Positions 7,319-50,833 of a DNA stretch of 64,000 bases are shown here, piece after piece (position 1 is the first letter of the stretch; every line of letters starts with the position of its first letter). The notes beneath the pieces were generated by a model. The model saw only the letters and a program-made list of their open reading frames with translations. It searched no databases and was not told the DNA's origin. The translations under genes and the position numbers were made by a program. The stretch is from Acidobacteriota bacterium (GTDB lineage: Bacteria > Acidobacteriota > Vicinamibacteria > Vicinamibacterales > UBA2999), in NCBI GenBank assembly GCA_031376505.1, contig JANMDX010000256.1, positions 8,682-72,681 on the forward strand. The letters run 5' to 3'.

Positions 7319-7891
7319 GTGGAATCACCTAGCGCAACCATCCTGCTCCATGCGTGGCGGGGCGGCGAGGCAACCGCTCTCGATCGCCTGCTGCCGCTCG
7401 TCTACGACGAGCTTGCCCGCATTGCCCGCGGCGCGCTGCGGTCGGAGCGCCCGGACCACACGCTGCAGACTCGCGCACTCGTCCACGAAGCCTATTTGCG
7501 GCTCATCGACGCCGACGTCTCGTGGCAGGACAAGGCGCATTTCATGGCCGTGGCCGCACGTACGATGCGGCGCGTGCTGGTGGACCATGCGCGCAGCCGG
7601 CGCCGGCAGAAACGCGGCGGGGGCGCCGTGAAAGTGGAGCTCGAAGACGTGGCCGCAGTCATCGCGGCGCCCTCGGTGGACGTCCTCGACCTGCACGACG
7701 TGCTCGAGCGGCTGGCCGAGTTCGACGCACGCAAGGCCAGCATCGTCGAGCTGCACTTCTTCGGCGGGCTGAGCTACGACGAAACCGCGGAAGCCGTGGG
7801 CGTGTCGGCGGCGACCGTGGACCGCGAGCTGCGGATGGCCAAGGCGTGGCTCCGCCACGAGCTCACGATACGCGGCAGCGCCGTCGAGTAG
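7319..7891 (+). CDS. ECF-type RNA polymerase sigma factor (kinase-associated subgroup)
   Basis: Region 2 (HEAYLRL) and region 4 HTH (SYDETAEAVGVSAATVDRELRMAKAWL). The N-terminus LLHAWRGGEATALDRLLPLVYDEL is typical of ECF sigmas that are genomically paired with Ser/Thr kinases. Confidence 0.9.
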   Translation: MESPSATILLHAWRGGEATALDRLLPLVYDELARIARGALRSERPDHTLQTRALVHEAYLRLIDADVSWQDKAHFMAVAARTMRRVLVDHARSRRRQKRGGGAVKVELEDVAAVIAAPSVDVLDLHDVLERLAEFDARKASIVELHFFGGLSYDETAEAVGVSAATVDRELRMAKAWLRHELTIRGSAVE

Positions 7892-7924
7892 CCGCGACGC
7901 CTTCGGGCGGAAGGGAGTGGTCGT

Positions 7925-10804
7925 ATGACCCCCGAACGTTGGGCGGCCGCACAGGCGTTATTCGAGGCGGCCCTAGCCTGCCCCGACGACGCCCGGGCCG
8001 CGCTCGTGGATCGCGAGGCCTCCGACCGCGAGCTAGCCGAGCTTGTGCACGGCCTGATTGCTGCTGACATCGAAGAACACGCGGGACGACCCCTCGTCGG
8101 GGTCATCAGCGATGCGGTCGCCGAGGCCACCACCACCCCGCGCCCGCCGCTCGAGCGCCTGGGGCCTTACAAGCTCGTGAAGATGCTGGGCGAAGGGGGC
8201 ATGGGCGCCGTCTACCTGGCGGAACGCGATGACGACGAGTTCCTGCAGCAAGTGGCGATCAAGGTGGTGCGCGGGCTGCTCGATCCGGAGCGCGTGCGCC
8301 AGTTCCGCGCCGAGCGCCAGATCCTGGCGTGGCTCGAACACCCGAATATCGCCCGCCTGCTCGACGGCGGCACGACACCAGAGGGCCTCCCCTACCTGGT
8401 CATGGAGCAGGTGGAAGGCGTGCCGATCGATCAGCACTGCGACACGCAGCAACTGTCGGTCGAGGATCGGCTGCGGCTGTTCTTGGAGGTCTGTGATGCG
8501 GTCAGCCACGCGCACCGCAGCCTGATCGTGCACCGCGACATCAAGCCCAGCAACATCATGGTGACCGCCGAGGGCGTGCCCAAGCTGCTCGACTTCGGCA
8601 TCGCGCGCCTCACGCTTGAAGGCGCGCCGGATGCGCCGGCCCCGCCCCAGGGGCGGATGCTGACCCCCGACTACGCCAGTCCGGAGGTCGTGCGCGGCGA
8701 ACACGTCACCACGTCGGCCGACGTGTATGCGCTCGGCGTGCTGCTCTACGAGCTCATGACGGGTGCCCGCCCTCATCGCTTTGCAACGATGACGAGCGCG
8801 GAGATCGAGCGCGTGGTGTGTCACGTGACGCCGAGCCGCCCGAGCGTCGCGGCCGTCGAGCCCATGCCGCGCGCTTCGGAGCCGGCTGAGCGGGCCCGGG
8901 TGCGGCGGTTGACGCCGAGCCGACTCAGTGCGCGGCTGGCAGGCGACCTCGACGCCGTCATCGGCATGGCGCTGCACAAGCAGCAGGCCGAACGGTATCC
9001 GTCGGTCGAAGCACTGGCCGCGGACCTCCGGCGTCACCTCGATCACCGCCCCGTGCGGGCCCGCGAGGCCACCTGGAGGTACGTGGCCGCGCGCTTCGGG
9101 TCGCGCCACCGCTTCGGCGTGGGCGCGGCGGCGTTGCTGCTGCTGGTCGTCGGCACGGCGGCCGTCGGCTTCTCAGTGCAAGCCGCCCGGCTGGCCGAAG
9201 AACGTGACCGGACCGCGCGCGAGCGCGATACGGCGCAGCAGGTGGTCTCGTTCCTGACGGGCCTGTTCGTCGTCTCTGACCCCGATCGGACCGGAGCTGA
9301 GCCCATCACGGCGCGGGAGCTGCTCGACCGTGGCGCCGAGCGCCTCGACACGGAACTGGCGGGGCAGCCGGTCGTGCAGGCCCGTCTGCTCGGCACCATC
9401 GGCACCGTCTACGGCAGCCTGGGCATCTACGATCGGTCGGCGGCCCTGCTCGAACGTGGGCTCGAGCTGCGCCGCTCGACGCTCGGGCGAGACCACGAAG
9501 AGACTGCGACGTCCATGGAGGAGCTGGCGGAGGCCTACCGCGAGCTAGCGCGCCTCGAGGAAGCCGAGACGCTGCACCGCGAGGCGCTGGCGTTGAAGCG
9601 GCGGGTCGGGGCCTCGCCTTCGTCGGTGGCCTCATCGCTCAACAACCTGGGGCTCACTCTGAGCGAGCGTGGACGCTACGGCGATGCCGAGCCCCTGCTG
9701 CGCGAGGCCATCGAGACCTGGCGCGCTCACGATGGGCCGACGGCCGAGGTCGTGGCCGTGGGCCTGAACAACCTCGCGTCGATTGTGCGCCAGCAGGGGC
9801 GGCTCGACGACGCGGTGCCGATGCTGGAACAAGCGATCGCCATCCGGCGGCAGCGGCACGGCAACGGACACCCGGCCCTGGCGCAGGTGCTCGGCCATCT
9901 GGGTCAGGTGTTCAACGCGAAGGGCGAATTCAACAAGGCCGAGCCGCTCTTGCGCGAGGCCCTGGCCATTCGCCGACGCGCGTACGGCGACGACCACCCC
10001 GATACCCTCACCGCCCTGAACAACCTCACGTCGCTCCTGCACGACCAAGGCGACCTGGCTGCGGCCGAGCCGTTGTACCGGGCGGCGCTGGCGAGCGTCG
10101 GCAAGCGGTTGGGCACGACACACCCAGACTACGCCGTGCAGCTCAGCAATCTCGCGACCCTGCTCGAGGACGAGTGCCGATACGACGAGGCCGAGCGTCT
10201 CTATCGGGAGTCGCTCGCGGTACGGCAGCTCGCCTACGGCGCCGAACATGCGGCCGTCGCTCGCGTGCAGCACCACCTCGGGCGCGTGCTGCTCAAGATG
10301 GGGCGCACGGGCGAAGCTGATCCGTTGCTACACGCGGCGCTTGCGGTACGACGCAGGACACTGCCTGCCGGGCACTACGAAATTGCCCTCAGCATGGCCG
10401 TGCTCGGGGAGGCCGCGGCGGCCGATGGACGGCCCACCGAAGGAGTCCGGTTGCTGCAGGAGGCGCTCGAGCTGCAGCGCGCAAGTCTCGGCTCGGGCCA
10501 TCCGGCGGTGGCAGACTCCCTACTGGCGCTGTCGGCGCTCAAGCGCCAACTGCGCAATCCTGCCGCCGCGGTAGACCTGGCCACGGAGGCGATGGCCATC
10601 CGCACTGCGAAACTGCCAGAGGGACACTGGAAGCTGGCCACTGCCAAGATCGAGCTGGCGGCTGTCTTCGTCGCACTGGGCCGGATTCAAGACGCACAGC
10701 CGCTCTTGACTCAGGCTGTGGCGGTGCTGACGGCCCGGCTCGGCGAACACGACCCGAGGGCCGCCGAGGCTCGCAGGCTGCTGAGTGCGGCGGGCCACGG
10801 CTGA
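7925..10804 (+). CDS. Ser/Thr protein kinase with one TM segment and a long TPR array
   Basis: Hanks motifs: GEGGMGAVYLA, VAIK, HRDIKPSN, LLDFGIA, YASPEV. TM segment GVGAAALLLLVVGTAAVGF. The C-terminal roughly 500 aa carries repeated TPR-like units (NNLG/NNLA...Y.EAL). Confidence 0.9.
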   Translation: MTPERWAAAQALFEAALACPDDARAALVDREASDRELAELVHGLIAADIEEHAGRPLVGVISDAVAEATTTPRPPLERLGPYKLVKMLGEGGMGAVYLAERDDDEFLQQVAIKVVRGLLDPERVRQFRAERQILAWLEHPNIARLLDGGTTPEGLPYLVMEQVEGVPIDQHCDTQQLSVEDRLRLFLEVCDAVSHAHRSLIVHRDIKPSNIMVTAEGVPKLLDFGIARLTLEGAPDAPAPPQGRMLTPDYASPEVVRGEHVTTSADVYALGVLLYELMTGARPHRFATMTSAEIERVVCHVTPSRPSVAAVEPMPRASEPAERARVRRLTPSRLSARLAGDLDAVIGMALHKQQAERYPSVEALAADLRRHLDHRPVRAREATWRYVAARFGSRHRFGVGAAALLLLVVGTAAVGFSVQAARLAEERDRTARERDTAQQVVSFLTGLFVVSDPDRTGAEPITARELLDRGAERLDTELAGQPVVQARLLGTIGTVYGSLGIYDRSAALLERGLELRRSTLGRDHEETATSMEELAEAYRELARLEEAETLHREALALKRRVGASPSSVASSLNNLGLTLSERGRYGDAEPLLREAIETWRAHDGPTAEVVAVGLNNLASIVRQQGRLDDAVPMLEQAIAIRRQRHGNGHPALAQVLGHLGQVFNAKGEFNKAEPLLREALAIRRRAYGDDHPDTLTALNNLTSLLHDQGDLAAAEPLYRAALASVGKRLGTTHPDYAVQLSNLATLLEDECRYDEAERLYRESLAVRQLAYGAEHAAVARVQHHLGRVLLKMGRTGEADPLLHAALAVRRRTLPAGHYEIALSMAVLGEAAAADGRPTEGVRLLQEALELQRASLGSGHPAVADSLLALSALKRQLRNPAAAVDLATEAMAIRTAKLPEGHWKLATAKIELAAVFVALGRIQDAQPLLTQAVAVLTARLGEHDPRAAEARRLLSAAGHG

Positions 10805-11146
10805 CCGGGGCCGGACGACGCCGAGGGCAAGACTCGCTGATTGGCGCTTCAGAAGCCAGGAAACCGCAGCAGTCAATTCCCCGTTCTAGTAGACTATTGT
10901 TGTCGTCCCTGCGCACCTTTCGGAGGCTGCGGCGGGTCGAAAATTGGCAGTTCTCGCAGGGTTGGAAGCCCCCCCCAGGCGCCTGGCCCTCAGGGAACTG
11001 CCGAAGCCGGCGGTTGAGGTGCTTACGGCCTGAGTCTTGCTTAAGGCAAGGCTGGGCCCGACATTTCACCTGCTGGCGAAGGCCAAGCAGCCCCAGAAGC
11101 TCTCTGCCATGAGCGTCTGGTCACTGGGCCGATACGAGGACGACCG

Positions 11147-12217
11147 ATGTTGGCCGCAACTGCCGAAGCACAACTGATTGGGGATAGCCCCGCCGTCGCC
11201 GATCTCCGCACGGACATCGAGCGCACGGCACGGTCCGACGCCAAGGTGCTCATCACCGGGGAGAGCGGCGTGGGCAAGGAGCTGGTCGCACGGTCCGTAC
11301 ACGCCCACAGCTCGCGGGCGTCGAAGCCGTTTGTGGCGGTCAACTGCGCGGGCCTGCCGGAGACACTGCTCGAATCGGAACTGTTCGGGCACGTCAAGGG
11401 CAGCTTCACGGGCGCCTACCGTGACAAGCAAGGCAAGCTTGAAATGGCCGACGGCGGCACGCTCTTTCTCGATGAAGTCGGCGAGATGACCCTGCGCATG
11501 CAGGGCCTGCTGCTGCGTTTCCTCGAAACCGGCGAGTTGCAGAAGGTCGGCGCCGACCGGGTGCGCGCTACCGTCAGCATCCGCGTCATCGCCGCGACCA
11601 ATCGCAACCTGCGCGAGCTCATCGCGCAGCAGGCGTTCCGCGAAGACTTGTTCTACCGGCTCAACGTGATTCACCTGCTGGTGCCGCCCCTACGCGAGCG
11701 ACGCACCGACATTCCCGACCTCGTGCAGCGCTTTCTGCTGCGCAGCAGCGCGACTGGCCACTACGCGATGCGGTCGGTATCGCCAGAGGCCATGGACGCT
11801 CTGTGCAAGTACTCCTGGCCCGGCAACGTGCGCGAACTGCAGAACCTCGTCGAGCGGCTCGTCGTGACCTGCCAGCGCGAGATCGCGCTGCCCGACGACC
11901 TCCCGCCGGAGATCCGGCTGCTGCCCTTCGGCGCTTATCGGCCGCGGCGCGAACGCCGGCGCACGGTGTCCGACGAGCTGTACCAGAAGCTCGTCGACAC
12001 CGGCGAGTCGTTCTGGACGCTCGTCTATCCGCTCTACATGCAGCGTGAGATCACCAGAGGCCATCTGCGCGACCTCGTGCGGAAGGGCCTTCAGGAGGCC
12101 CGCGGCAACTATCGGATCGTCGTGCGCATCTTCAATATGCCGACGGGCGACTACAAACGGTTCCTCAACTTCCTGCGCACTCACGAGTGCCAGGTCTCGT
12201 TCAAGGAGTTCCGATGA
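11147..12217 (+). CDS. Sigma-54-dependent transcriptional activator without receiver/sensor domain (paralog 1)
   Basis: The AAA+ domain starts about 10 residues from the N-terminus: Walker A GESGVGKE, Walker [10 protein letters not shown], sigma-54 contact loop [26 protein letters not shown]-terminal HTH-like tail [25 protein letters not shown]. Confidence 0.9.
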   Translation: MLAATAEAQLIGDSPAVADLRTDIERTARSDAKVLITGESGVGKELVARSVHAHSSRASKPFVAVNCAGLPETLLESELFGHVKGSFTGAYRDKQGKLEMADGGTLFLDEVGEMTLRMQGLLLRFLETGELQKVGADRVRATVSIRVIAATNRNLRELIAQQAFREDLFYRLNVIHLLVPPLRERRTDIPDLVQRFLLRSSATGHYAMRSVSPEAMDALCKYSWPGNVRELQNLVERLVVTCQREIALPDDLPPEIRLLPFGAYRPRRERRRTVSDELYQKLVDTGESFWTLVYPLYMQREITRGHLRDLVRKGLQEARGNYRIVVRIFNMPTGDYKRFLNFLRTHECQVSFKEFR

Positions 12218-12855
12218 CGGCCCCCATGTTCGCAATCCTGTCGCTGTGCGCGTCGGTGTCCGTGTCGGCGCAGTCGAGCGGAGCACCAGTGCCCCGCCAG
12301 CCGGCGCCCGCGACGGCGGCCGCCCAGAAGCCGCCGGCAGTGCCGGACATACCTGACGGCGTCACGCCGCCGTCCGACTACGTGATCGGAGCCGAAGACG
12401 TGCTCGACATCATCGTCTGGCGCGAAAAAGACCTTTCGGCCGAAGTCATGGTGCGCCCCGACGGGCTGGTCTCACTGCCGCTGCTGAACGACGTGCAGGC
12501 CGGCGGACTCTCGGTGGAGCAGTTCCGCGAGCGCGTCGCCACCGCGGTCGCCAAGTTTGTCGAGTCACCGAGCGTGACGGTGATCGTGAAGACGATCAAC
12601 AGCCGCAAGGTGTACGTCATGGGCGAAGTCATGAAGCCCGGCCCCTATCCTCTGACCGCGCCAACCACCGTGCTGCAGTTGCTCGCAGCCGCGGGCGGAC
12701 CGACGCCGTTTGCGGACGTGAAAGACATCAGCATCGTGCGCACCGTCGGGGCCAAGACCGTGCGTCTGCCCTTCAACTACAAGGAAGTGGCACGCGGCCG
12801 GAAGATCGAGCAGAACGTGCTGCTTCGTCCCGGCGACACGGTGATTATCCCATGA
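12214..12855 (+). CDS. Polysaccharide export protein (Wza/EpsE-like, periplasmic/OM)
   Basis: Signal peptide MTAPMFAILSLCASVSVSAQ. Poly_export-type motif (YVIGAEDVLDIIVWREKDLSAEVMVRPDGLVSLPLLNDVQAGGLS) followed by an SLBB-like part. The ATG at 12214 overlaps the previous stop (ATGA). Confidence 0.9.
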   Translation: MTAPMFAILSLCASVSVSAQSSGAPVPRQPAPATAAAQKPPAVPDIPDGVTPPSDYVIGAEDVLDIIVWREKDLSAEVMVRPDGLVSLPLLNDVQAGGLSVEQFRERVATAVAKFVESPSVTVIVKTINSRKVYVMGEVMKPGPYPLTAPTTVLQLLAAAGGPTPFADVKDISIVRTVGAKTVRLPFNYKEVARGRKIEQNVLLRPGDTVIIP

Positions 12856-24200: not shown

Positions 24201-24262
24201 GCAAAGGGCTCCCCGGCTCGTAAAGTATAGGGGCCCTGAGATTCGAGCCTCAATGCTTTACA

Positions 24263-24277
24263 GCATAAACAAGGCCA
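24263..24277 (-). promoter_or_regulatory. Candidate sigma-54 (-24/-12) promoter for 22179..24200
   Basis: The minus strand reads TGGCCTTGTTTATGC, with GG and GC at the canonical 10-nt separation. It lies about 63 nt upstream of ATG 24200. The -12 element is ATGC rather than TTGC. Confidence 0.45.
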
Positions 24278-26861: not shown

Positions 26862-26952
26862 GGTGTCCCCGATGCTGATGATTCGTGTGCGGTGAGCCAC
26901 GTGCAGTCGGGGGAACTGCGTGGGCAATGACTCCTTCACGCCCGCCGTAAGA

Positions 26953-26967
26953 GCAAGTGGTGTGCCC
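26953..26967 (-). promoter_or_regulatory. Candidate sigma-54 (-24/-12) promoter for 24450..26861
   Basis: The minus strand reads GGGCACACCACTTGC (then TC): GGCAC-N5-TTGCT with canonical spacing, about 92 nt upstream of ATG 26861. Confidence 0.6.
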
Positions 26968-39831: not shown

Positions 39832-40473
39832 CTATTCGGGAACGAACCGCGACAGCAACGGAAAGATATCGGCGGCAAGAGCTTCGGCACGGCGGCTCGC
39901 CGCGCTGGCGTCTTCGCCTCGGGCCACAGGGCTCAGCACGCGCACAAGCGCGCCGTCGGTGCGGTTGCGCTGGGCGGCATCCCACACGAGGTAGGCCTTG
40001 CTCCAGTACTCGCTCGCGACGGTGCGGCCGCGCCCTTGGTACCAATACAGCGCCACTTGCCGGTCTTCGCCCTTCTGGATCACATAACGATTCACCTCGA
40101 CCGCACCCGAAGAGCCGGCGGCAATCGTGGTGCGGCCCGCTTGCACCGGCACCCAGCCCGCGCCCGGCAGACAGTTCATCGGAGAGTGGATGGTGTCGCC
40201 CTGCCGCTGGCTGCGGTAGTACCCGACAAACAGGCCGACCTGCGCCCCGGGAGACGCGTACGCACGCAACAGATAGTCATCCACGCCGAGCACGCGCATC
40301 GTGTCGAAGTCGAGAGGAGCGGCGTCGGTGCCCGTCCAGCGGCCGATCGCCATTGGAAAATCCGCCAACGCGTCGCGAGGCGCGGTGGCATCGGCCCGTT
40401 CTGATGCAGCAAGCGCGGCCGCGGCCGCACTGAGCGTCAGGAAGACCACGAAGAGTCGGGTGGTTAACGTCAT
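39832..40473 (-). CDS. epsI: Exosortase-associated EpsI family protein
   Basis: Signal/anchor, then DFPMAIGRWTG...DDYLLRAY....VGLFVGYYRSQRQGDTIHSPMNCLPGAGW, the hallmark EpsI core. Confidence 0.85.
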   Translation of the reverse strand: MTLTTRLFVVFLTLSAAAAALAASERADATAPRDALADFPMAIGRWTGTDAAPLDFDTMRVLGVDDYLLRAYASPGAQVGLFVGYYRSQRQGDTIHSPMNCLPGAGWVPVQAGRTTIAAGSSGAVEVNRYVIQKGEDRQVALYWYQGRGRTVASEYWSKAYLVWDAAQRNRTDGALVRVLSPVARGEDASAASRRAEALAADIFPLLSRFVPE

Positions 40474-40477
40474 GCGG

Positions 40478-41371
40478 TCACACCGACGCGCTACTGGCGG
40501 GTACGCCGGAAGGCAGCACGGGGTCTGGCGTGATGCGATTCACAAGTTCGCGCAGCGCGAAGAGCAGGGCAAGGGCCGCTACGAACACGAGCCAGCCCGA
40601 GACCCCATGAAGAAATCCTTCAGCCACGTCGGCGCCGTAGCGATGGGCCGCGATCCCTGTGCCCGCGACGCGCAGGCCGTTGGTCAGCACGGCAATCGGC
40701 ACGGTCGAGACCGCGAGCAGGCAGCGCACCCAAAGCCGCGAGTCCATGAAGTAGGCATACACGACACTCAGCGTGAGCAGCGACACGAGCGAGCGGATGC
40801 CGCTGCACGCCTCGGCCACTTCGAGAGTGGTGTTGGCCAGGATCATCACGTTGCCTTCTCGTAGCACCGGCACGCCGAACGCCTCGAGGCCGGCCTGACC
40901 GACCTGTGAGGCCAGCAGCTGCAGCGGCAGCGCGACCTGGTTGAAGAGCAATGCCGGCAAGGGAATCATCAGCAGGAGGAAGGCCAGCGGAAACGCGAGC
41001 AGGCGCAGATGCGCCCATCCAAAAGCGAACAGCACCACACCCACAAGCACGCCCACCATCGCTACGCGCGTGAGGAACAGCTCGGCGCCAAGCGTGCCCG
41101 CCCCAAGCAGCAGCAGGCTGCCGACGACCACGGCGAAGCCAAGCGCACTGGGTCTCAACGCCGCCGCGGTAAGCGCCGCGCGGCGCTCCCATGCCAGGAA
41201 CAGCGCGACCGGCACGACCAGAAAGCCGTGGGAGTAGTTGTAGTCGGTGGACCAGTCGGCAACCAGATTGCGCGCGACGTCGAAGAACACGGCCGCAAAG
41301 GCAACGCCCGCCAGCACCGCCATGACGGCTGCGCGAGAGGGCGGCCCGGTGCGCAATGGGAGAATCGTCAC
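40478..41371 (-). CDS. Exosortase (EpsH/XrtA-like)
   Basis: DWSTDYNYSHGFLVVPVALFLAW, catalytic-Cys motif EACSGIRSL, NGLRV and HGVSGW motifs, 8 TM helices. The start is uncertain: GTG 41371 is chosen, with alternatives ATG 41323 and TTG 41449 (the latter would overlap the upstream hairpin tail). Confidence 0.9.
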   Translation of the reverse strand: MTILPLRTGPPSRAAVMAVLAGVAFAAVFFDVARNLVADWSTDYNYSHGFLVVPVALFLAWERRAALTAAALRPSALGFAVVVGSLLLLGAGTLGAELFLTRVAMVGVLVGVVLFAFGWAHLRLLAFPLAFLLLMIPLPALLFNQVALPLQLLASQVGQAGLEAFGVPVLREGNVMILANTTLEVAEACSGIRSLVSLLTLSVVYAYFMDSRLWVRCLLAVSTVPIAVLTNGLRVAGTGIAAHRYGADVAEGFLHGVSGWLVFVAALALLFALRELVNRITPDPVLPSGVPASSASV

Positions 41372-41440
41372 TCTCGAGGAAGTATCGGTCGGAACGAGGC
41401 GATTTCGTAGCGATGAATGGCGGCTCGCGGACGGCCGCGG

Positions 41441-41474
41441 AAATGACAACGGCGAGGCGCTGACGCGCCCCGCC
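41441..41474 (-). terminator. Stem-loop (possible attenuator/terminator) between the PEP-CTERM gene and the exosortase
   Basis: The minus-strand RNA forms GGCGGGGCGC-GUCA-GCGCCUCGCC, a 10-bp stem with one G-U pair, followed by GUUGUCAUUU. Confidence 0.4.
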
Positions 41475-41508
41475 GTGCGGAATCAACTGAAGTGGGAGCC
41501 GCCTGCAG

Positions 41509-42219
41509 CTAGGCGGTCTGAGCCGCGGCCCGACGGCGACGGCGACGAGCCGCCGCGGCGCCGGCCAGGCCAGTCGCGAGCAACACCATGCTGGCTGGTT
41601 CCGGCACGACGGTGGGCGCCGTGTTCACGAACGACTCGCTATTGCCTTCGCCGCCAATCGACTGCACGTGTGTGCCGATGCGCAGGTCGCCGGTCGACAG
41701 GCTGGTCAGCAGGCTGGCGAACGTGGAGCCCTGGTTGAGCGTGAAGATCAGCCTCAGCCACTCACCCGGGTTGACGCCGTTTGGCGATACCGGTGGCCGG
41801 GCGCCGACGCCGTCGGTGGCCCGGAACTGGATGCCGTTTCCGCCCGGCAGGTTCCGGTTACCGGCGAGCTCTCTGAAGCTCACGCCGCTTGACCCGTTCA
41901 TGCTGCTCAGCGCGATCAGCGTCGGATTGGGTTGGTCGAAATATATCTGGGTAATCGAGGACGCGCCCGGGCCCGTGTTGCTGAACAGGAACTCCACCGA
42001 GCCATTTCCCAGGTCGGTCAGTGCGGCACTGAGCTGCGACTGCCCGATGGCGCAGCTGGACGCGGCGTTGTTGGTCACGCACGAGAATCCGAGCGTGGCA
42101 GCCTCGGTCCGGGCCGTTCCGAGCGCAAACACCGTGGCAACCGCGGCGGCCGACAACGCAATCCGGGAAACTGACATTCGCATCACCAAGGCGCTCATCC
42201 TTTTCTCTACGGTAGCCAC
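41509..42219 (-). CDS. PEP-CTERM sorting-domain protein (putative exosortase substrate)
   Basis: C-terminus VVPEPASMVLLATGLAGAAAARRRRRRAAAQTA = PEP motif + TM helix + Arg cluster. N-terminal signal (…RIALSAAAVATVFALGTARTEA). The start is ambiguous: GTG 42219, or ATG 42198/42183/42177. Confidence 0.9.
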   Translation of the reverse strand: MATVEKRMSALVMRMSVSRIALSAAAVATVFALGTARTEAATLGFSCVTNNAASSCAIGQSQLSAALTDLGNGSVEFLFSNTGPGASSITQIYFDQPNPTLIALSSMNGSSGVSFRELAGNRNLPGGNGIQFRATDGVGARPPVSPNGVNPGEWLRLIFTLNQGSTFASLLTSLSTGDLRIGTHVQSIGGEGNSESFVNTAPTVVPEPASMVLLATGLAGAAAARRRRRRAAAQTA

Positions 42220-42274
42220 ACTTCACAGAGGAAGATCCGCCTGCGGTGCGGTGTCCGTTGACGCATATTGAACA

Positions 42275-42289
42275 GCAATAACGCTGCCA
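42275..42289 (-). promoter_or_regulatory. Candidate sigma-54 (-24/-12) promoter for the PEP-CTERM gene/exosortase operon
   Basis: The minus strand reads TGGCAGCGTTATTGC (TGGCA-N6-TTGC, canonical spacing). It lies 56 nt upstream of the first possible start codon. Confidence 0.65.
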
Positions 42290-42469
42290 ACTGTCCACGA
42301 CCGTGTACCTACGCGCCGTATTGAGGGTTTCCAGGCGATGGGTTCAAGGGGAGGGCCAGATGCAAGTCATGGTCGCGCATTTTGGGAAAAATAATCGTGC
42401 CCTGCGCAGACTAGTAAGGCTCGGCTGCCGCGGTTGGGCGCTCGGGCGCTTGACACCTCATGCCAGGTG

Positions 42470-42483
42470 CACGCAGCTGCGTG
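42470..42483. promoter_or_regulatory. 14-bp perfect palindrome CACGCAGCTGCGTG in the divergent control region
   Basis: Perfect dyad, about 180 bp upstream of the sigma-54 motif at 42275-42289 and about 130 bp upstream of the activator start at 42615. Confidence 0.3.
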
Positions 42484-42614
42484 GTTCAGGTCTTCCGTCC
42501 AGACTTTGTTCTGCTCTTTCCTGACAGATAGTCGCTCGATTCTTGTTCTTGTCCGCAAACTGCTGATATTCTGACGTGGTAGTGGTCCGTTCAGACTACG
42601 GGTCGACCAAATCA

Positions 42615-43775
42615 ATGCAGCCAGTCGACGCTCCCCGAGACATACCGGCGCCCCAGCCTCGCCAGCAGGTCCTGATTGGACGGAGCCAGGCTCTGAAGGT
42701 CGTACATCAGGAGATCGAGTACGCCGCGCGGTCCGACGCGAAGGTGCTTGTCACGGGGGCCAGTGGCGTGGGCAAGGAAGTGGTCGCGCACCTCATCCAC
42801 ACCCGCAGCCGGCGGCGCCACGCGCCGATGCTTACGATCAACTGTGCGGCCATGCCTGACTCGCTGCTCGAGTCCGAGCTCTTCGGACACGCCCGGGGTA
42901 GCTTCACCGACGCGTATCGCGACAAGCGCGGGCTCTTTGAAGCCGCCAATGGCGGCACGGTGTTCCTCGACGAAGTCGGCGAGATGTCACTCCGCATGCA
43001 GGCGTTGCTGCTCAGATTTCTCGAAACCGGGGAGATTCAGCGGGTGGGCGACGAGCGCAATCGCGCCAACGTCAACGTCCGCGTCGTGGCCGCGACGAAT
43101 CGGCGTCTGCCCGAACGCATCCAGAGCGGCGACTTCCGCGAAGACCTCTACTATCGGCTCAATGTGATTCACATCACGATTCCGCCGCTGCGCGAACGTC
43201 GCGACGACGTGGCGCCGCTGCTCGAGCACTTCCTGCGGCAATTCGCGGTCGAACACGGCGTGCCTCTGCCGGCAACCGCCGACGACGCGGTGACCGCGCT
43301 CGAAGCGTACGACTGGCCCGGCAACGTTCGAGAGCTCCGCAACATCGCCGAGCGTCTGACCTGCCGCTGCCCCGGCGGCGTGATTCGCATCGAAGATCTG
43401 CCGGCGGAAGTACGGGCTGTGGCTGTGCCTCCCGACGCGCCGGGGACGAAGCCAGGCGCGACCGCTCCGGCGCAAGCCTTGCTCGATCGGATCCTGCTCA
43501 GGGGTGAATCGTTCTGGGATGTGGCGTACGAACCGTTCATGGCCCGCGACTTGACGCGTGAGGACGTGCGGCACCTGGTGCGCGTGGGGCTCGAACAAAC
43601 CCGCGGGAACTACAAGGCGCTGGTGCAGCTGTTCAACATGGAACCGCAGGACTACAAGCGGTTCCTGAATTTCCTGCGCAAATACGGCTGCCACATGCCG
43701 TTCCAGCGATTCCGGATGGCGCCGGGTCGCGGCGACAGCGGCGCAGCCGGTTCGAGCGGTAAAGAGCCCGTCTGA
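42615..43775 (+). CDS. Sigma-54-dependent transcriptional activator without receiver/sensor domain (paralog 2)
   Basis: About 25 residues precede the AAA+ core: Walker A GASGVGKE, Walker [10 protein letters not shown], contact loop [26 protein letters not shown]-terminal tail [25 protein letters not shown] matches paralog 1. ATG 42615 is preferred over GTG 42576. Confidence 0.9.
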
Positions 43776-43787
43776 GCCGGCGCGCTC
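43772..43787. terminator. Small hairpin formed by two convergent stop codons
   Basis: CTGAGC-CGGC-GCTCAG: a 6-bp perfect stem that includes TGA of 42615..43775 and the reverse TGA of 43786..44445. No U-tract. Confidence 0.25.
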
Positions 43788-44445
43788 AGGCCGCCGACAC
43801 CGCGTCGACGTACGACTGCCAGCGCGGGTTGTCGGGCATCGCAAACGCGACCCCGCACGCCACGGGTTGCAATGGGTCGCCGCGATGAGCCCACACGCGC
43901 TGTCCGCGCAAGTCGATACCGAGCTCTGGGATGACGACGTGCACCGTGTCGCCCGGGGGCGACATGCCGAAGACCTCGAGACAGACGCCGCCGTAGCTCA
44001 CGTCGAGCAGCCGGCCCGGCAACCCTTCCACCACCGCTGCGACGTCGGAGGCCAGACGCTTCCGTGGCCACCGGCGCTTGGGCCGCGGGACCGCAAGGAG
44101 TTCTGCGATGGTCAACTCGAGATCGCGGGGCGTTACCGGCGAGAGAAGATACCGCGCACCGAGTCCGCCCGCTTCGACTTCAAGGACGTGATCCTGGCCA
44201 CCGATGACGATGGCCACGGTGCGAGGAAACTCGACGCGCGCCACCGCCACGAGATGCAAGCCGTTGTACGGGCCAAGGCGCACGTCGGTGACGAGTACTT
44301 CGGGGGGCGAGCCCTCTTCCAGAGTGCGTCGGGCGTCCGGGAAACTCGAACACGCACGCGCTGCGAAACCAGCACGCCTCAGGGCGGTCACGCGTCCCGA
44401 CAGAACGTGAGGATCAGCACTGACGACGAGGATGTCTGATGTCAT
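43786..44445 (-). CDS. Degenerate receiver (REC) domain + PilZ domain protein (copy 1)
   Basis: CheY-like fold (ILVVSADP...VLVTDVRLGPYNGLHLV...AIVIGGQD...YLLSPV). C-terminal PilZ motifs RRWPRKR (RxxxR) and DVSYGG (DxSxxG). Start at ATG 44445. Confidence 0.8.
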   Translation of the reverse strand: MTSDILVVSADPHVLSGRVTALRRAGFAARACSSFPDARRTLEEGSPPEVLVTDVRLGPYNGLHLVAVARVEFPRTVAIVIGGQDHVLEVEAGGLGARYLLSPVTPRDLELTIAELLAVPRPKRRWPRKRLASDVAAVVEGLPGRLLDVSYGGVCLEVFGMSPPGDTVHVVIPELGIDLRGQRVWAHRGDPLQPVACGVAFAMPDNPRWQSYVDAVSAA

Positions 44446-44471
44446 GCTCAAGGTTTGCCGAGTATGACATT

Positions 44472-44486
44472 GCAAACCATCGGCCA
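44472..44486 (-). promoter_or_regulatory. Candidate sigma-54 (-24/-12) promoter for REC-PilZ copy 1
   Basis: The minus strand reads TGGCCGATGGTTTGC (then AA) with canonical GG/GC spacing, 27 nt upstream of ATG 44445. The 7-bp inverted repeat GGTTTGC/GCAAACC (44452-44458 / 44472-44478) overlaps the -12 element. Confidence 0.5.
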
Positions 44487-44601
44487 AGCGTAAATCTGGC
44501 GTCTGCGCTCAATTCGCATGCCTGGCGCTGGGCCTGACCAGACTTCTGGCCCTTGTTCCAGGGACAAATCGAGGATGCCCCGGAACGAGTCCCTCGGCCA
44601 G

Positions 44602-45306
44602 TTAGGCAGGCAGCCCAGGCCCGCCCGAGAGCGGCAGGATGCCTGGGAGCAGTTCCAGACCGTCGACAAACGAGCGCCATCGAGCATCGACTGCGCTGTC
44701 GCGACGCAGAGCCAACCCGCAGGCAATGGGCTGGGCCCTACCGGGGCGTTTGGCCCACACCCGCTCGACCGGCACGGCAAGGCCCGTCGAGGGCACGGTC
44801 AGCTCGAGCGCGTCGGTCGGGATGTCGGCGCCAAAGAACTCGATGCCCGCGCCGCCGTAGCTCACGTCTACGATGCGTGCTTCGATACCAGATACAAACG
44901 TAGCGAGCTCGCGAACGGGGCGCTTGCGTGGCCAGCGGCGCTGGGGACGAGGGGCGGCCACGAGTTCGGCGAGCACGGCCGCAAGCCGGTCGGCCGCCAC
45001 CGGCTCGACCAGGTACCTGGCCCCAAGGTGATACGACTCGGCCTGCAGGGCGGAGTCTCTGGGCCCGACGACGAGACAGGTCGTCCTCGGGTGCTCCACC
45101 TGCGCAATGGCGACGAGATGGAGTCCGTTGTAGTCGCCAAGATGCACGTCGGTGACGATGGCGTGCGGCTCGAGCTCCGACAGCACCTGGCGCGCGTCGA
45201 GAAAGGTCTCGACCGGCATCACGGAGAATCCCGCATCCCGGAGGGCCTCGAGTCTTCCAGCTGAAGTGGAATCGTTGGCGCCTACGACGAGCACCGGCAT
45301 TTGCAT
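44602..45306 (-). CDS. Degenerate receiver (REC) domain + PilZ domain protein (copy 2)
   Basis: Paralog of 43786..44445 (VLVVGAND...AIVTDVHLGDYNGLHLV...YLVEPV; RRWPRKR; DVSYGG). The start is ambiguous: ATG 45306 or 45300, or GTG 45330. Confidence 0.8.
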   Translation of the reverse strand: MQMPVLVVGANDSTSAGRLEALRDAGFSVMPVETFLDARQVLSELEPHAIVTDVHLGDYNGLHLVAIAQVEHPRTTCLVVGPRDSALQAESYHLGARYLVEPVAADRLAAVLAELVAAPRPQRRWPRKRPVRELATFVSGIEARIVDVSYGGAGIEFFGADIPTDALELTVPSTGLAVPVERVWAKRPGRAQPIACGLALRRDSAVDARWRSFVDGLELLPGILPLSGGPGLPA

Positions 45307-45530
45307 AACGTCAGGTCCTTGAGTTGCCACGCTCCAAAACGTGCTTCAAAGATCGGGCCAAGACGAATTGCGCAAATTAAGGCCAAGACTTGATGGATTG
45401 CGGTGCATCCTGACGTGGGGCGTCAACATAATCGTAAAGGATCAAACCCCAAGCGTCGGTGAATTGACGGGTGCCCATGGCGCATGAATCGGGTGTTGCG
45501 CGCCGGTTGTCGACTGGTTCAGGATAGGCC

Positions 45531-48732: not shown

Positions 48733-48747
48733 TGGCAGCGGCTTTGC
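48733..48747 (+). promoter_or_regulatory. Candidate sigma-54 (-24/-12) promoter immediately upstream of the S8 protease gene
   Basis: TGGCAGCGGCTTTGC (TGGCA-N6-TTGC). Only 13 nt separate the -12 GC from ATG 48761, implying a leaderless or near-leaderless mRNA if the motif is functional. Confidence 0.45.
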
Positions 48748-48760
48748 GAAGACGGATGGC

Positions 48761-50833
48761 ATGAACTCTCCGTCATCCGAACGCCGAACCGTCTGGACCC
48801 AGGCATCTATTCGGCGGCTGTCGCTCTGCGCGCTGCTGGTGGCTGTGGGCCTCGGTGCTTTCTCGACCGATGCATCCGCGCAGCGCCGCTTCAAGCCCAC
48901 TCGCTCCGACGAGGTCAAGTTCGACCGACTCCTGCAAGACGTCGCGGGCGACGACGACACCGTCCCGGTCATCGTTGAATTCAACGACGAGTCGGGCGCG
49001 GACCGACTCGTCGCGGCAAGCGGCGGCAACCAGGGCAAGCGCCTCGGCGGCATGCGCGGCCGCACGACCCGCATGTCAAAACGCATGCTGCGCCGGCTCG
49101 CGGCGAGCGGCGCGGTGAAGCGCGTGCACTACGACCGTCCGGTCGAGGCGCTGCTGGGCCGCACGGCTGCGACCATCGGCGCCCTCACGGTACAGCAGCG
49201 CATGGGCTACAGGGGCGCTGGTATCGGCGTGGCCGTCATTGACTCGGGCGTCACGCCCAACCACGACGATCTCCGGTATGCCGGCAGCACCACCCAGCGC
49301 GTCTCGAAGTTCGTGGATTTCGTGGGCACGGGCACGTCGGCCTACGACGACTGGGGTCATGGCACACACGTGGCGGGAATCATTGCCGGCAACGGCTATG
49401 ACAGCTACGGCGTGCGCACGGGCGTGGCGCCAGACGCCACGATCGTATCGCTGAAGGCGCTCGACGGCTACGGCCGGGGCCGCGTCAGCATGATCATCGC
49501 GGCGCTCGACTGGGCCGTGGCAAACCGCGCGGCCTACAACATCCGCGTGATCAACATGTCGCTCGGCGCGGGGGTGTTCGAGTCGTACAAGACCGACCCG
49601 CTCACGCTGGCCGCCAAGCGCGCCGTCGACGCGGGCATCGTGGTCGTGGCCGCGGCCGGCAACATCGGCAGGGACGCCAACGGCAACGCGCAGTATGGCG
49701 CCATCACGGCGCCGGGCAACGCGCCGTGGGTGCTCACGGTGGGTGCCGCCGACGGCAAGGGCAACCTGTTTCGCGGCGACGACGAGGTCGCCCCCTACAG
49801 CTCGCGCGGGCCCACCGCGCACGACTTCGCCGCCAAACCCGATCTGGTCGCGCCCGGCACGGGCGTGGCGTCGCTTGCGAGCCCAGGCAGCAAGATGTAC
49901 GTGGAGAAGCCACAGTTCCTGCTGGCCGGCAGCCGGTCCACGCAGTTCAAGCCGTACCTGACGTTGAGCGGCACGAGCATGGCCGCGCCGGCCGTGGCCG
50001 GCACGGTGGCCCTGATGCTGCAGGCCAATCCCAATCTGACACCGAACCTGGTGAAGGCGCTGCTGCAATACACGGCCCAAGCCAAGCAGGGCGTCGACCT
50101 GCTCACGCAGGGCGCCGGCTTCTTGAACGCGCGCGGCGCGGTCACGCTGGCTGAGTATTTTCGCACCGGCCGGCCGGGCAGCCGATATCCCCATTCGGGT
50201 TCGTGGAGCCGCCACATCGTATGGGGCAACCACGTCATCACGGGCGGCGTGATTGCACCCTTCGCCAATGCCTGGGCCACCAACATCGTGTGGGGCGAGA
50301 GCCAGACGTCGGCCGGCCAGAACATCGTGTGGGGTGAAGCCTGCGGCGGACCGTGCGCAAACGTCACCTGGGGCTCCAACATCGTGTGGGGCGAGAACAT
50401 CGTCTGGGGTGAAGACATCGTCTGGGGCCTCGACGACAACATCGTGTGGGGCGAGAACATCGCCTGGGGCATGGACGACAACATCGTCTGGGGTGAAAAC
50501 GTGGTGTGGGGAATGGACTGCGGCGCCGCCAATTGCGCCAACGTGGTCTGGGGACAGCACACCGGCGCGTCGGGCTTGAACGTCGTCTGGGGCATGGCCG
50601 AGGGCCTCAACGTGGTCTGGGGCAACAACATCGTCTGGGGCGAGAACATCGTGTGGGGTGAAAGCACCGACCCCGACGCCTCGTGGGGCAGTTCCGGCAC
50701 CGACGCAGCCGTCTACGGCGACGAATCAGCCGAGATTCTCGCCTTCGACCCCTTGGCCTGGGACGCCGCGAACAATCCCGACCTGCCGGATGCTCTGACG
50801 ACGGGCACGACCCCGAACGGAGGCAGCTTCTAA
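48761..50833 (+). CDS. Secreted S8 (subtilisin-family) serine peptidase with C-terminal VWG-repeat domain
   Basis: Signal peptide; I9-like propeptide (VPVIVEFND...); catalytic triad contexts VAVIDSGV (Asp), HGTHVAG (His), SGTSMAAP (Ser). Confidence 0.9.
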   Translation: MNSPSSERRTVWTQASIRRLSLCALLVAVGLGAFSTDASAQRRFKPTRSDEVKFDRLLQDVAGDDDTVPVIVEFNDESGADRLVAASGGNQGKRLGGMRGRTTRMSKRMLRRLAASGAVKRVHYDRPVEALLGRTAATIGALTVQQRMGYRGAGIGVAVIDSGVTPNHDDLRYAGSTTQRVSKFVDFVGTGTSAYDDWGHGTHVAGIIAGNGYDSYGVRTGVAPDATIVSLKALDGYGRGRVSMIIAALDWAVANRAAYNIRVINMSLGAGVFESYKTDPLTLAAKRAVDAGIVVVAAAGNIGRDANGNAQYGAITAPGNAPWVLTVGAADGKGNLFRGDDEVAPYSSRGPTAHDFAAKPDLVAPGTGVASLASPGSKMYVEKPQFLLAGSRSTQFKPYLTLSGTSMAAPAVAGTVALMLQANPNLTPNLVKALLQYTAQAKQGVDLLTQGAGFLNARGAVTLAEYFRTGRPGSRYPHSGSWSRHIVWGNHVITGGVIAPFANAWATNIVWGESQTSAGQNIVWGEACGGPCANVTWGSNIVWGENIVWGEDIVWGLDDNIVWGENIAWGMDDNIVWGENVVWGMDCGAANCANVVWGQHTGASGLNVVWGMAEGLNVVWGNNIVWGENIVWGESTDPDASWGSSGTDAAVYGDESAEILAFDPLAWDAANNPDLPDALTTGTTPNGGSF
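50213..50689 (+). repeat. About 16 irregularly spaced coding repeats with core N-[IV]-[VTA]-W-G
   Basis: HIVWG, NIVWGE, NIVWGE, NVTWG, NIVWGENIVWGEDIVWG, NIVWGENIAWG, NIVWGENVVWG, NVVWG, NVVWG, NVVWGNNIVWGENIVWGE. Confidence 0.85.

Follow-up and report, generated by a model that had tools for sequence, protein, structure and literature searches.

We analysed a 64,000-nucleotide stretch of DNA (hereafter the window) from an Acidobacteriota bacterium of the order Vicinamibacterales (GenBank assembly GCA_031376505.1, contig JANMDX010000256.1). It encodes two paralogous sensor-less sigma-54 activators, here called A and B, on either side of an exopolysaccharide (EPS) and PEP-CTERM/exosortase cluster. 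In B, the L1 loop that contacts sigma-54 reads GSFTDA in place of the consensus GAFTGA. Our preferred interpretation of the sequence, to which we give a probability of roughly 55%, is that B is a working sigma-54 enhancer-binding activator that is controlled in trans at the EPS and PEP-CTERM/exosortase locus. We place B among the known sigma-54 activators that lack a sensor and are controlled in trans, as a variant with GSFTDA, and regard it as one half of an activator pair that is conserved among soil bacteria of this order.

B (positions 42615-43775, + strand; open reading frame 42576/42615-43775, with an ATG at 42615) encodes 386 amino acids, and its loop occupies residues 95-100 (42897-42914, + strand; codons GGT AGC TTC ACC GAC GCG, with D99 encoded by GAC). 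A (11147-12217, + strand) encodes 356 amino acids, and its loop (11399-11416, + strand; surrounding sequence ESELFGHVKGSFTGAYRDKQG) reads GSFTGA, which is invariant in 49 A-type sequences. Translation of both genes, together with the codon positions in B, agreed with an earlier note on this DNA, which had reported two deviations from the consensus in B and a deviation at the first of these positions only in A. The two proteins are 52% identical over 348 residues. Both match Pfam Sigma54_activat (PF00158; E = 8e-67 for B and 6e-68 for A) and AAA_lid_14, and a Pfam scan of the two found nothing beyond the sigma-54 interaction domain and the AAA lid. In B, the AAA+ domain (residues 20-268) is followed by a five-helix C-terminal domain (approximately residues 284-367) and a variable tail; in A, the AAA+ domain begins at residue 10. 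Stop-to-stop frames permit at most 16 (B) and 34 (A) additional N-terminal residues, which leaves no space for a sensor domain in either protein, and the sensor-less architecture described in the earlier note holds for both. The same is true of its statement that Walker A/B and sensor II are intact: all catalytic residues are present, and the Walker A lysine, the Walker B DE, both arginine fingers, the sensor II arginine and the loop F and T (F97 and T98 in B) are invariant across 49 A and 50 B sequences. An AlphaFold model of B has a predicted local distance difference test (pLDDT) score of 85.6, and its AAA+ core superimposes on that of FleQ with a template modelling (TM) score of 0.94 and a root mean square deviation of 1.5 Å. 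FleQ, which is 48% identical to B, and VpsR are among the nearest solved AAA+ structures. Neither A nor B reached an equivalog cut-off in an NCBIfam scan; the PrsR family TIGR02915 scored 270.3 bits against B (cut-off 502.6), with only the AAA+ part covered and the receiver domain absent. The source genome (6.48 Mb in 435 contigs) has one rpoN gene (contig C207) and approximately 23 full activator domains.

The loop variant is shared by the relatives of B. Among the 120 best database matches to B (98% to 61% identity), 105 carry GSFTDA, 11 carry GSFTGA and 2 carry GAFTDA, and the remaining 2 fell outside the loop search pattern. With 105 of the 120 nearest proteins carrying it, the D is therefore not strain-specific, a possibility that the earlier note had raised when it proposed such a survey. 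In the source genome, 20 activator loops could be read (12 GAFTGA, 5 GSFTGA, 2 GAFTDA and 1 GSFTDA), so that D stands at position 5 in three of them. The two GAFTDA proteins (G000:C7, a 459-amino acid frame; G000:C179, a 489-amino acid frame) are ordinary receiver-AAA+-Fis response regulators. Across the wider B clade (n = 50), 37 loops read GSFTGA and 13 read GSFTDA, compared with an A clade in which the loop is always GSFTGA and the entire loop region is nearly frozen. The tree requires at least four changes between G and D in B and none in A. All nine rows of the window's own B clade, which spans its taxonomic family and a neighbouring one, have D. The position-5 codon is mostly GGC in both paralogs, and the single transition from GGC to GAC is open to both. 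Both GAC and GAT encode the residue in the D lineages, which indicates that D was retained through synonymous change. When the 50 B sequences were compared for residues that separate D-type from G-type proteins, position 99 alone was found and no other. At the level of sequence, these comparisons show GSFTDA to be a form of the L1 loop that is conserved within a lineage.

Both substitutions also occur in activators that work. A survey of D. vulgaris activators includes GAFTDA and GSFTGA among the variants that retain activation, and DVU2106 (GAFTDA) has assigned target operons in that organism (PMC4641369). The G266D variant of E. coli NorR, whose loop is GAFTDA, retains enhancer binding, ring formation, ATP hydrolysis and open-complex formation; its activity in vivo is full, and the GAF domain no longer represses it at all (PMC2941729). 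The premise that the loop of B is likely crippled gained no support, given that the D is conserved, that both substitutions are known working variants and that no catalytic residue has decayed. Taken alone, GSFTDA is an ordinary loop variant of a kind already known to work, and from its sequence the loop of B is very probably functional. The change from G to D at position 5 would then tune B, not disable it.

A and B belong to a subfamily that is defined by the C-terminal domain and has three members in the source genome. The same domain is found in 99 of the 151 genomes of Vicinamibacterales, mostly in two to four copies and usually on one contig. In a tree made by a quick method from 86 family proteins taken from 64 loci, A-type proteins, which stop right after ...CQLPFKEYR, form one clade (Shimodaira–Hasegawa-like approximate likelihood ratio test (SH-aLRT) support 80), and B-type proteins, in which ...CHMPFQRFR is followed by a variable tail, form another (SH-aLRT 85). 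Judged from these sequences, A and B form a real pair of old sister lineages. A third sensor-less activator with the same type of C-terminal domain (G000:C40:4907-6079) has a GSFTGA loop and a divergent ending, ...FLRHHNLKPKDD; in the tree it falls outside both clades, as their outgroup. A and B occur together in at least 30 genomes of the order, usually on the same contig. They stand in tandem in L033 and L034 (gaps of 92 and 118 bp, respectively), are divergent neighbours in several taxonomic families and elsewhere lie 30-70 kb apart, flanking the EPS cluster. Among 12 single-copy genomes, 10 have A alone, and B without A is rare. The functional link between the paralogs that the earlier note had proposed gained support from the sister clades, the shared genomes and the near-identity of the recognition helix described below; the anti-activator role that it had offered for one of them became unlikely.

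The C-terminal domain has the signature ESFW...RGNY...FNM...recognition helix...C..PF..FR, and its five helices are predicted with confidence. The predicted recognition helix of 10 residues is nearly invariant across A and B, and both would therefore probably read the same element. The candidate for this element is ACAA(N)AGTC, a motif that was spotted by eye and afterwards tested on other loci. It is rare (10 per Mb genome-wide) and over-represented in the 500 bp that precede A and B genes: these regions make up 4.4% of the sequence and contain 16 of 48 matches. Among 70 loci that had not been used in motif discovery we counted 12 matches, against 1.8 ± 2.0 for 400 permuted words, only one of which reached 12.

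In the window, candidate elements of this type lie near sigma-54 promoters or sigma-54-like elements at three places. Upstream of the PEP-CTERM gene, the promoter TGGCAGCGTTATTGCT (42274-42289, - strand) is the best consensus match in the window and is conserved in L032 and L054; the candidate enhancer ACAAAGTCTGG (42499-42509, - strand) lies approximately 210 nt upstream of it. A second promoter, TGGCCGATGGTTTGCA (44471-44486, - strand), stands approximately 25 nt upstream of the ATG of the first of two genes for receiver-PilZ proteins (copy 1). This promoter is present in all six clade loci and is also kept in loci that lack the EPS cluster between A and B. The related candidate CCAGAAGTCTGG (44538-44549, - strand) lies approximately 52 nt upstream of it; AAGTCTGG is kept there in four of six loci, with TAGTCTGG in L035 and AAGTCTTG in L033. 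Upstream of A by approximately 105 nt is a weaker sigma-54-like element, CGGCCTGAGTCTTGCT (11026-11041, + strand), of the form GG-N10-GC with TTGCT. This element aligns in four of five clade loci; the fifth, L035, has TTGAT there and an exact TGGC-N8-TGCT a few bases downstream. Stronger sigma-54-like elements precede A in other families. The related candidate upstream of A, ACAATAGTCTA (10890-10900, - strand), has the opposite orientation. The promoter sites that we retained are intergenic and either conserved or top-scoring; a permissive -24/-12 scan of the window gave too much noise for a regulon to be delineated. We also considered a 14-bp palindrome, CACGCAGCTGCGTG (42470-42483), as the enhancer and rejected it; it is not conserved in two orthologous divergent regions, and ACAA(N)AGTC was preferred for this reason.

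The genes around B point to its possible targets and to a possible source of control. The gene map agrees with the earlier description of B as divergent from the PEP-CTERM/exosortase genes and convergent with a receiver-PilZ gene. The divergent operon (39832-42219, - strand) encodes a PEP-CTERM protein (41509-42219), an exosortase (40478-41449) and EpsI (39832-40473), with Pfam labels taken from the orthologous locus L032, whose homology to the window was shown. On the other side, receiver-PilZ copy 1 (43786-44445, - strand; ATG at 44445) consists of a degenerate receiver and a PilZ domain (RRWPR, DVSYGG), and copy 2 follows at 44602-45330 (- strand). The translations of both copies contain the RxxxR and DxSxxG motifs for cyclic di-GMP (c-di-GMP). 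Among 49 B genes, 27 have a receiver(-PilZ) homolog in the 1.5 kb downstream, compared with 2 among 46 A genes. A Wza-like gene follows 38 of the 46 A genes and not one of the 49 B genes. These counts were made by tblastn with queries from the window's own clade and are probably undercounts. They support a link to receiver-PilZ for B alone, and in part.

We propose that B would bind an ACAA(N)AGTC-type upstream element through its C-terminal helical domain, assemble into a ring and open the PEP-CTERM/exosortase and receiver-PilZ promoters. The absence of a sensor domain suggests control in trans, for which the neighbouring receiver-PilZ protein or proteins are the most likely candidates; they would bring in a c-di-GMP signal, and this control may be comparable to that of PspA on PspF or HrpV on HrpS. 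If B also drives receiver-PilZ copy 1, a feedback loop would result. A would be the older, self-sufficient activator, co-transcribed with the export operon and probably reading the same element.

Another possibility is that the D is a natural regulatory-surface variant which alters the docking of a repressing partner (receiver-PilZ or A) on the L1 surface. The level of c-di-GMP control would thereby be reset and the catalytic mechanism left unchanged, which is compatible with our preferred interpretation. In NorR, the GAF domain represses by targeting the surface of the sigma-54 contact loop, and both G266D and G266N fully escape it (PMC2941729). Consistent with such a role, the tree has at least four origins of the D in B and none in A despite equal mutational opportunity (GGC in both), and the receiver(-PilZ) neighbour belongs to B and not to A. 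However, D showed no relation to whether a receiver-PilZ neighbour is present, in how many copies or in which orientation, position 99 alone separates D-type from G-type B proteins, and binding of receiver-PilZ to B is assumed. On balance, we consider this role for the D unlikely.

The co-occurrence of A and B, in turn, would fit a model in which they share enhancers and form mixed rings with two kinds of loop, as HrpR and HrpS of Pseudomonas syringae do, with B adding the receiver-PilZ input. The tandem and divergent arrangements, the nearly invariant recognition helix in both paralogs and the presence of one motif type upstream of A, the PEP-CTERM operon and receiver-PilZ copy 1 all point in this direction. 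Like A and B, HrpR and HrpS are paralogous sensor-less activators of approximately 350 amino acids that are sometimes in tandem, each has its own deviation from GAFTGA (GAFTGV and GAYTGA; PMC3105312), and a small regulator gene adjoins one of them. The resemblance has limits. HrpR and HrpS depend strictly on each other and show partial degeneration, whereas A is often alone and neither A nor B is degenerate; their loop changes lie elsewhere (F to Y, A to V), their DNA-binding domain is of a different type, and their target is hrpL, compared with EPS and PEP-CTERM genes here. HrpR/HrpS is the nearest known case, and two of its defining features, constant co-occurrence and motif degeneration, are absent here. 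We therefore set aside an obligate hetero-hexamer of the HrpR/HrpS type, given that genomes with only A exist and that neither paralog shows decay. Against mixed rings in general, the single-copy genomes indicate that A does not need B, the conserved neighbours of A and B differ, and in the window the two genes are 31 kb apart with separate promoters. Mixed rings are possible, but we hold this explanation only tentatively.

A parallel to two kinds of loop in one ring comes from a family of fused activators of approximately 640-790 amino acids, in which two complete sigma-54 AAA+ modules are joined in one polypeptide (P0129 (L114:6001-8025), P0127, P0128, P0134, P0141, P0148, P0154, P0193 and P0272-P0283). 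One D-type loop (G[AS]FTDA) and one G-type loop are combined in 13 of 19 of these proteins; in 12 of these 13, module 1 carries the D-type loop. Module 1 of a further protein, P0281, is also D-type, but its module 2 contains no loop that could be recognised. Among the single-domain activators of the same match list, D was found in 5 of 92. These fused proteins favour mixed rings as a parallel at most, being of a different lineage that lacks the C-terminal domain of A and B. They also suggest a broader idea, that D at position 5 marks one of two subunit types in rings made of two kinds of AAA+ module and that the pairing of D with G evolved repeatedly. The pairing would be unlinked in A and B and hard-wired in the fused proteins (module 1 G[AS]FTDA, module 2 G[AS]FTGA). 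A and B of the window would then form a mixed ring, and its D-type subunits would be distinct in regulation or in their contact with sigma-54 or DNA. We regard this as doubtful. The gene for P0129 is present on eight contigs, with two DUF1501 genes among its neighbours, and one member of the family is labelled Melainabacteria.

Several observations weigh against our preferred interpretation of B as a working activator under trans control. Scans with Pfam and NCBIfam gave no helix-turn-helix (HTH) family (no HTH_8) for the C-terminal domain of B, and a fold search with a separate model of this domain returned weak matches alone (E > 5), including Fis and other HTH proteins. ACAA(N)AGTC is a statistical candidate, with an exact match in 11 of 89 independent upstream regions. 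Control by receiver-PilZ is proposed from gene neighbourhood, either A or B could, as far as the sequence tells, act at a given promoter, and B and its orthologs are known as predicted proteins. The loop itself may carry a cost. In NorR G266D, ATPase activity and open-complex signals are below those of the wild type (PMC2941729), which suggests that D may cost activity, and no sigma-54 interaction was detected for Dickeya VfmH, whose loop is GAFTDA (PMC10714721).

These last two cases would also suit an anti-activator, or poison subunit, in which the D blocks sigma-54 contact and B occupies enhancers or spoils rings of A; the common recognition helix would let A and B compete for sites. Some substitutions at position 5 abolish activation in other activators, as in NtrC G219K. 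Against such a role, NorR G266D shows full activity in vivo and makes open complexes despite its reduced ATPase activity, activators with GAFTDA have assigned regulons, and B shows no change at F97, T98 or any ATPase residue, none of which a pure blocker would require. In addition, the plain GSFTGA loop is found in 37 of 50 B proteins, including most orthologs of other taxonomic families, which implies that the role of B predates the D and is independent of it. Because the D is conserved, the substitutions are tolerated elsewhere and the catalytic residues are intact, we consider an anti-activator role very unlikely.

As a working activator under trans control, B can be compared with four further systems. 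PspF, like B, consists of an AAA+ domain and a DNA-binding domain with no sensor, and a separate regulator that binds the AAA+ domain would be expected for B as well; however, the partner of PspF is the coiled coil PspA and PspF acts alone, whereas the candidate partner of B is a degenerate receiver-PilZ protein and B is paired. NorR G266D shares with B the change from G to D at loop position 5, which in NorR preserves activation and alters how the protein responds to a repressor docking on the loop surface, but NorR has its GAF sensor in the same polypeptide and G266D is a laboratory variant, whereas the D of B is natural, conserved and accompanied by S at position 2. The PrsK/PrsR/PrsT system of Proteobacteria resembles the locus in its sigma-54 activation of PEP-CTERM genes and in its long intergenic promoters near EPS and exosortase genes. 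PrsR has a receiver domain and a kinase partner, whereas B has no receiver and a different C-terminal domain. To our knowledge, regulation of PEP-CTERM/exosortase genes is known in Proteobacteria only (PrsK/PrsR). FleQ and VpsR are c-di-GMP-responsive activators of polysaccharide genes; they bind c-di-GMP themselves, whereas here the PilZ site for c-di-GMP is on a separate neighbouring protein.

The Vicinamibacterales offer an order-wide natural comparison of two intact sensor-less activators that apparently have one DNA-reading helix and one consistent difference in the loop. Only the paralog with the receiver-PilZ neighbour switches from G to D; in NorR, this substitution lifts repression by the GAF domain. 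The pair bears on the long-standing question of whether subunits within an activator ring have distinct roles, and the locus may have a detached c-di-GMP receptor that controls sigma-54 transcription of polysaccharide and PEP-CTERM/exosortase genes.

On its side of the locus, A is the first gene of an EPS export operon. The ATG of the Wza-like polysaccharide export gene (12214-12855, + strand) overlaps the stop codon of A (ATGA), with AAGGAG 5 nt upstream. Genes for an extracytoplasmic function (ECF) sigma factor (7319-7891) and a Ser/Thr kinase-TPR protein (7925-10804) lie directly upstream of A (7319-10804 in all, + strand). Outside the order, the C-terminal domain is found mostly on activators of 1000-2000 amino acids (G233, G266, G288, G308 and others; other Acidobacteriota). 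Two of these long proteins, P0160 and P0172 (approximately 1650-1830 amino acids), contain a Ser/Thr kinase, AAA_16 and a sigma-54 AAA+ domain, to which P0160 adds TPR and GAF domains. The kinase-TPR gene directly upstream of A may be a split version of this architecture.

The cluster between A and B varies among relatives of the source genome. A genome of the same genus (G099) shares with the window the EPS/PEP-CTERM cluster of approximately 30 kb (window 12214-42219) between A and B. Two close relatives (L033:8800-11122 and L034:6894-9524) lack the cluster and have A and B in tandem, with identical outer flanks; in L035, the gap between A and B is 3.6 kb. The flanks of L033 are as in the window, with the ECF sigma factor and kinase-TPR genes on one side and two receiver-PilZ genes and an FKBP gene on the opposite side.

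The window contains three other intergenic sigma-54-like elements, GGGCACACCACTTGCT (26952-26967, - strand), TGGCCTTGTTTATGCT (24262-24277, - strand) and TGGCAGCGGCTTTGCG (48733-48748, + strand), which precede two large secreted-protein genes of the cluster and a protease gene at 48761. Just upstream of B, a CTGATATTCTG block (42563-42573, + strand) is also present in L032 and L054, with TTGATATTCTG in L033; CTGATATTCTG is likely the -10 region of a sigma-70-type promoter of B itself. The divergent control region between B and the PEP-CTERM gene also contains three copies of AGTCTG on the same strand, 92 and 93 nt apart (42412-42601, - strand), of which the middle copy alone is conserved in orthologous loci.

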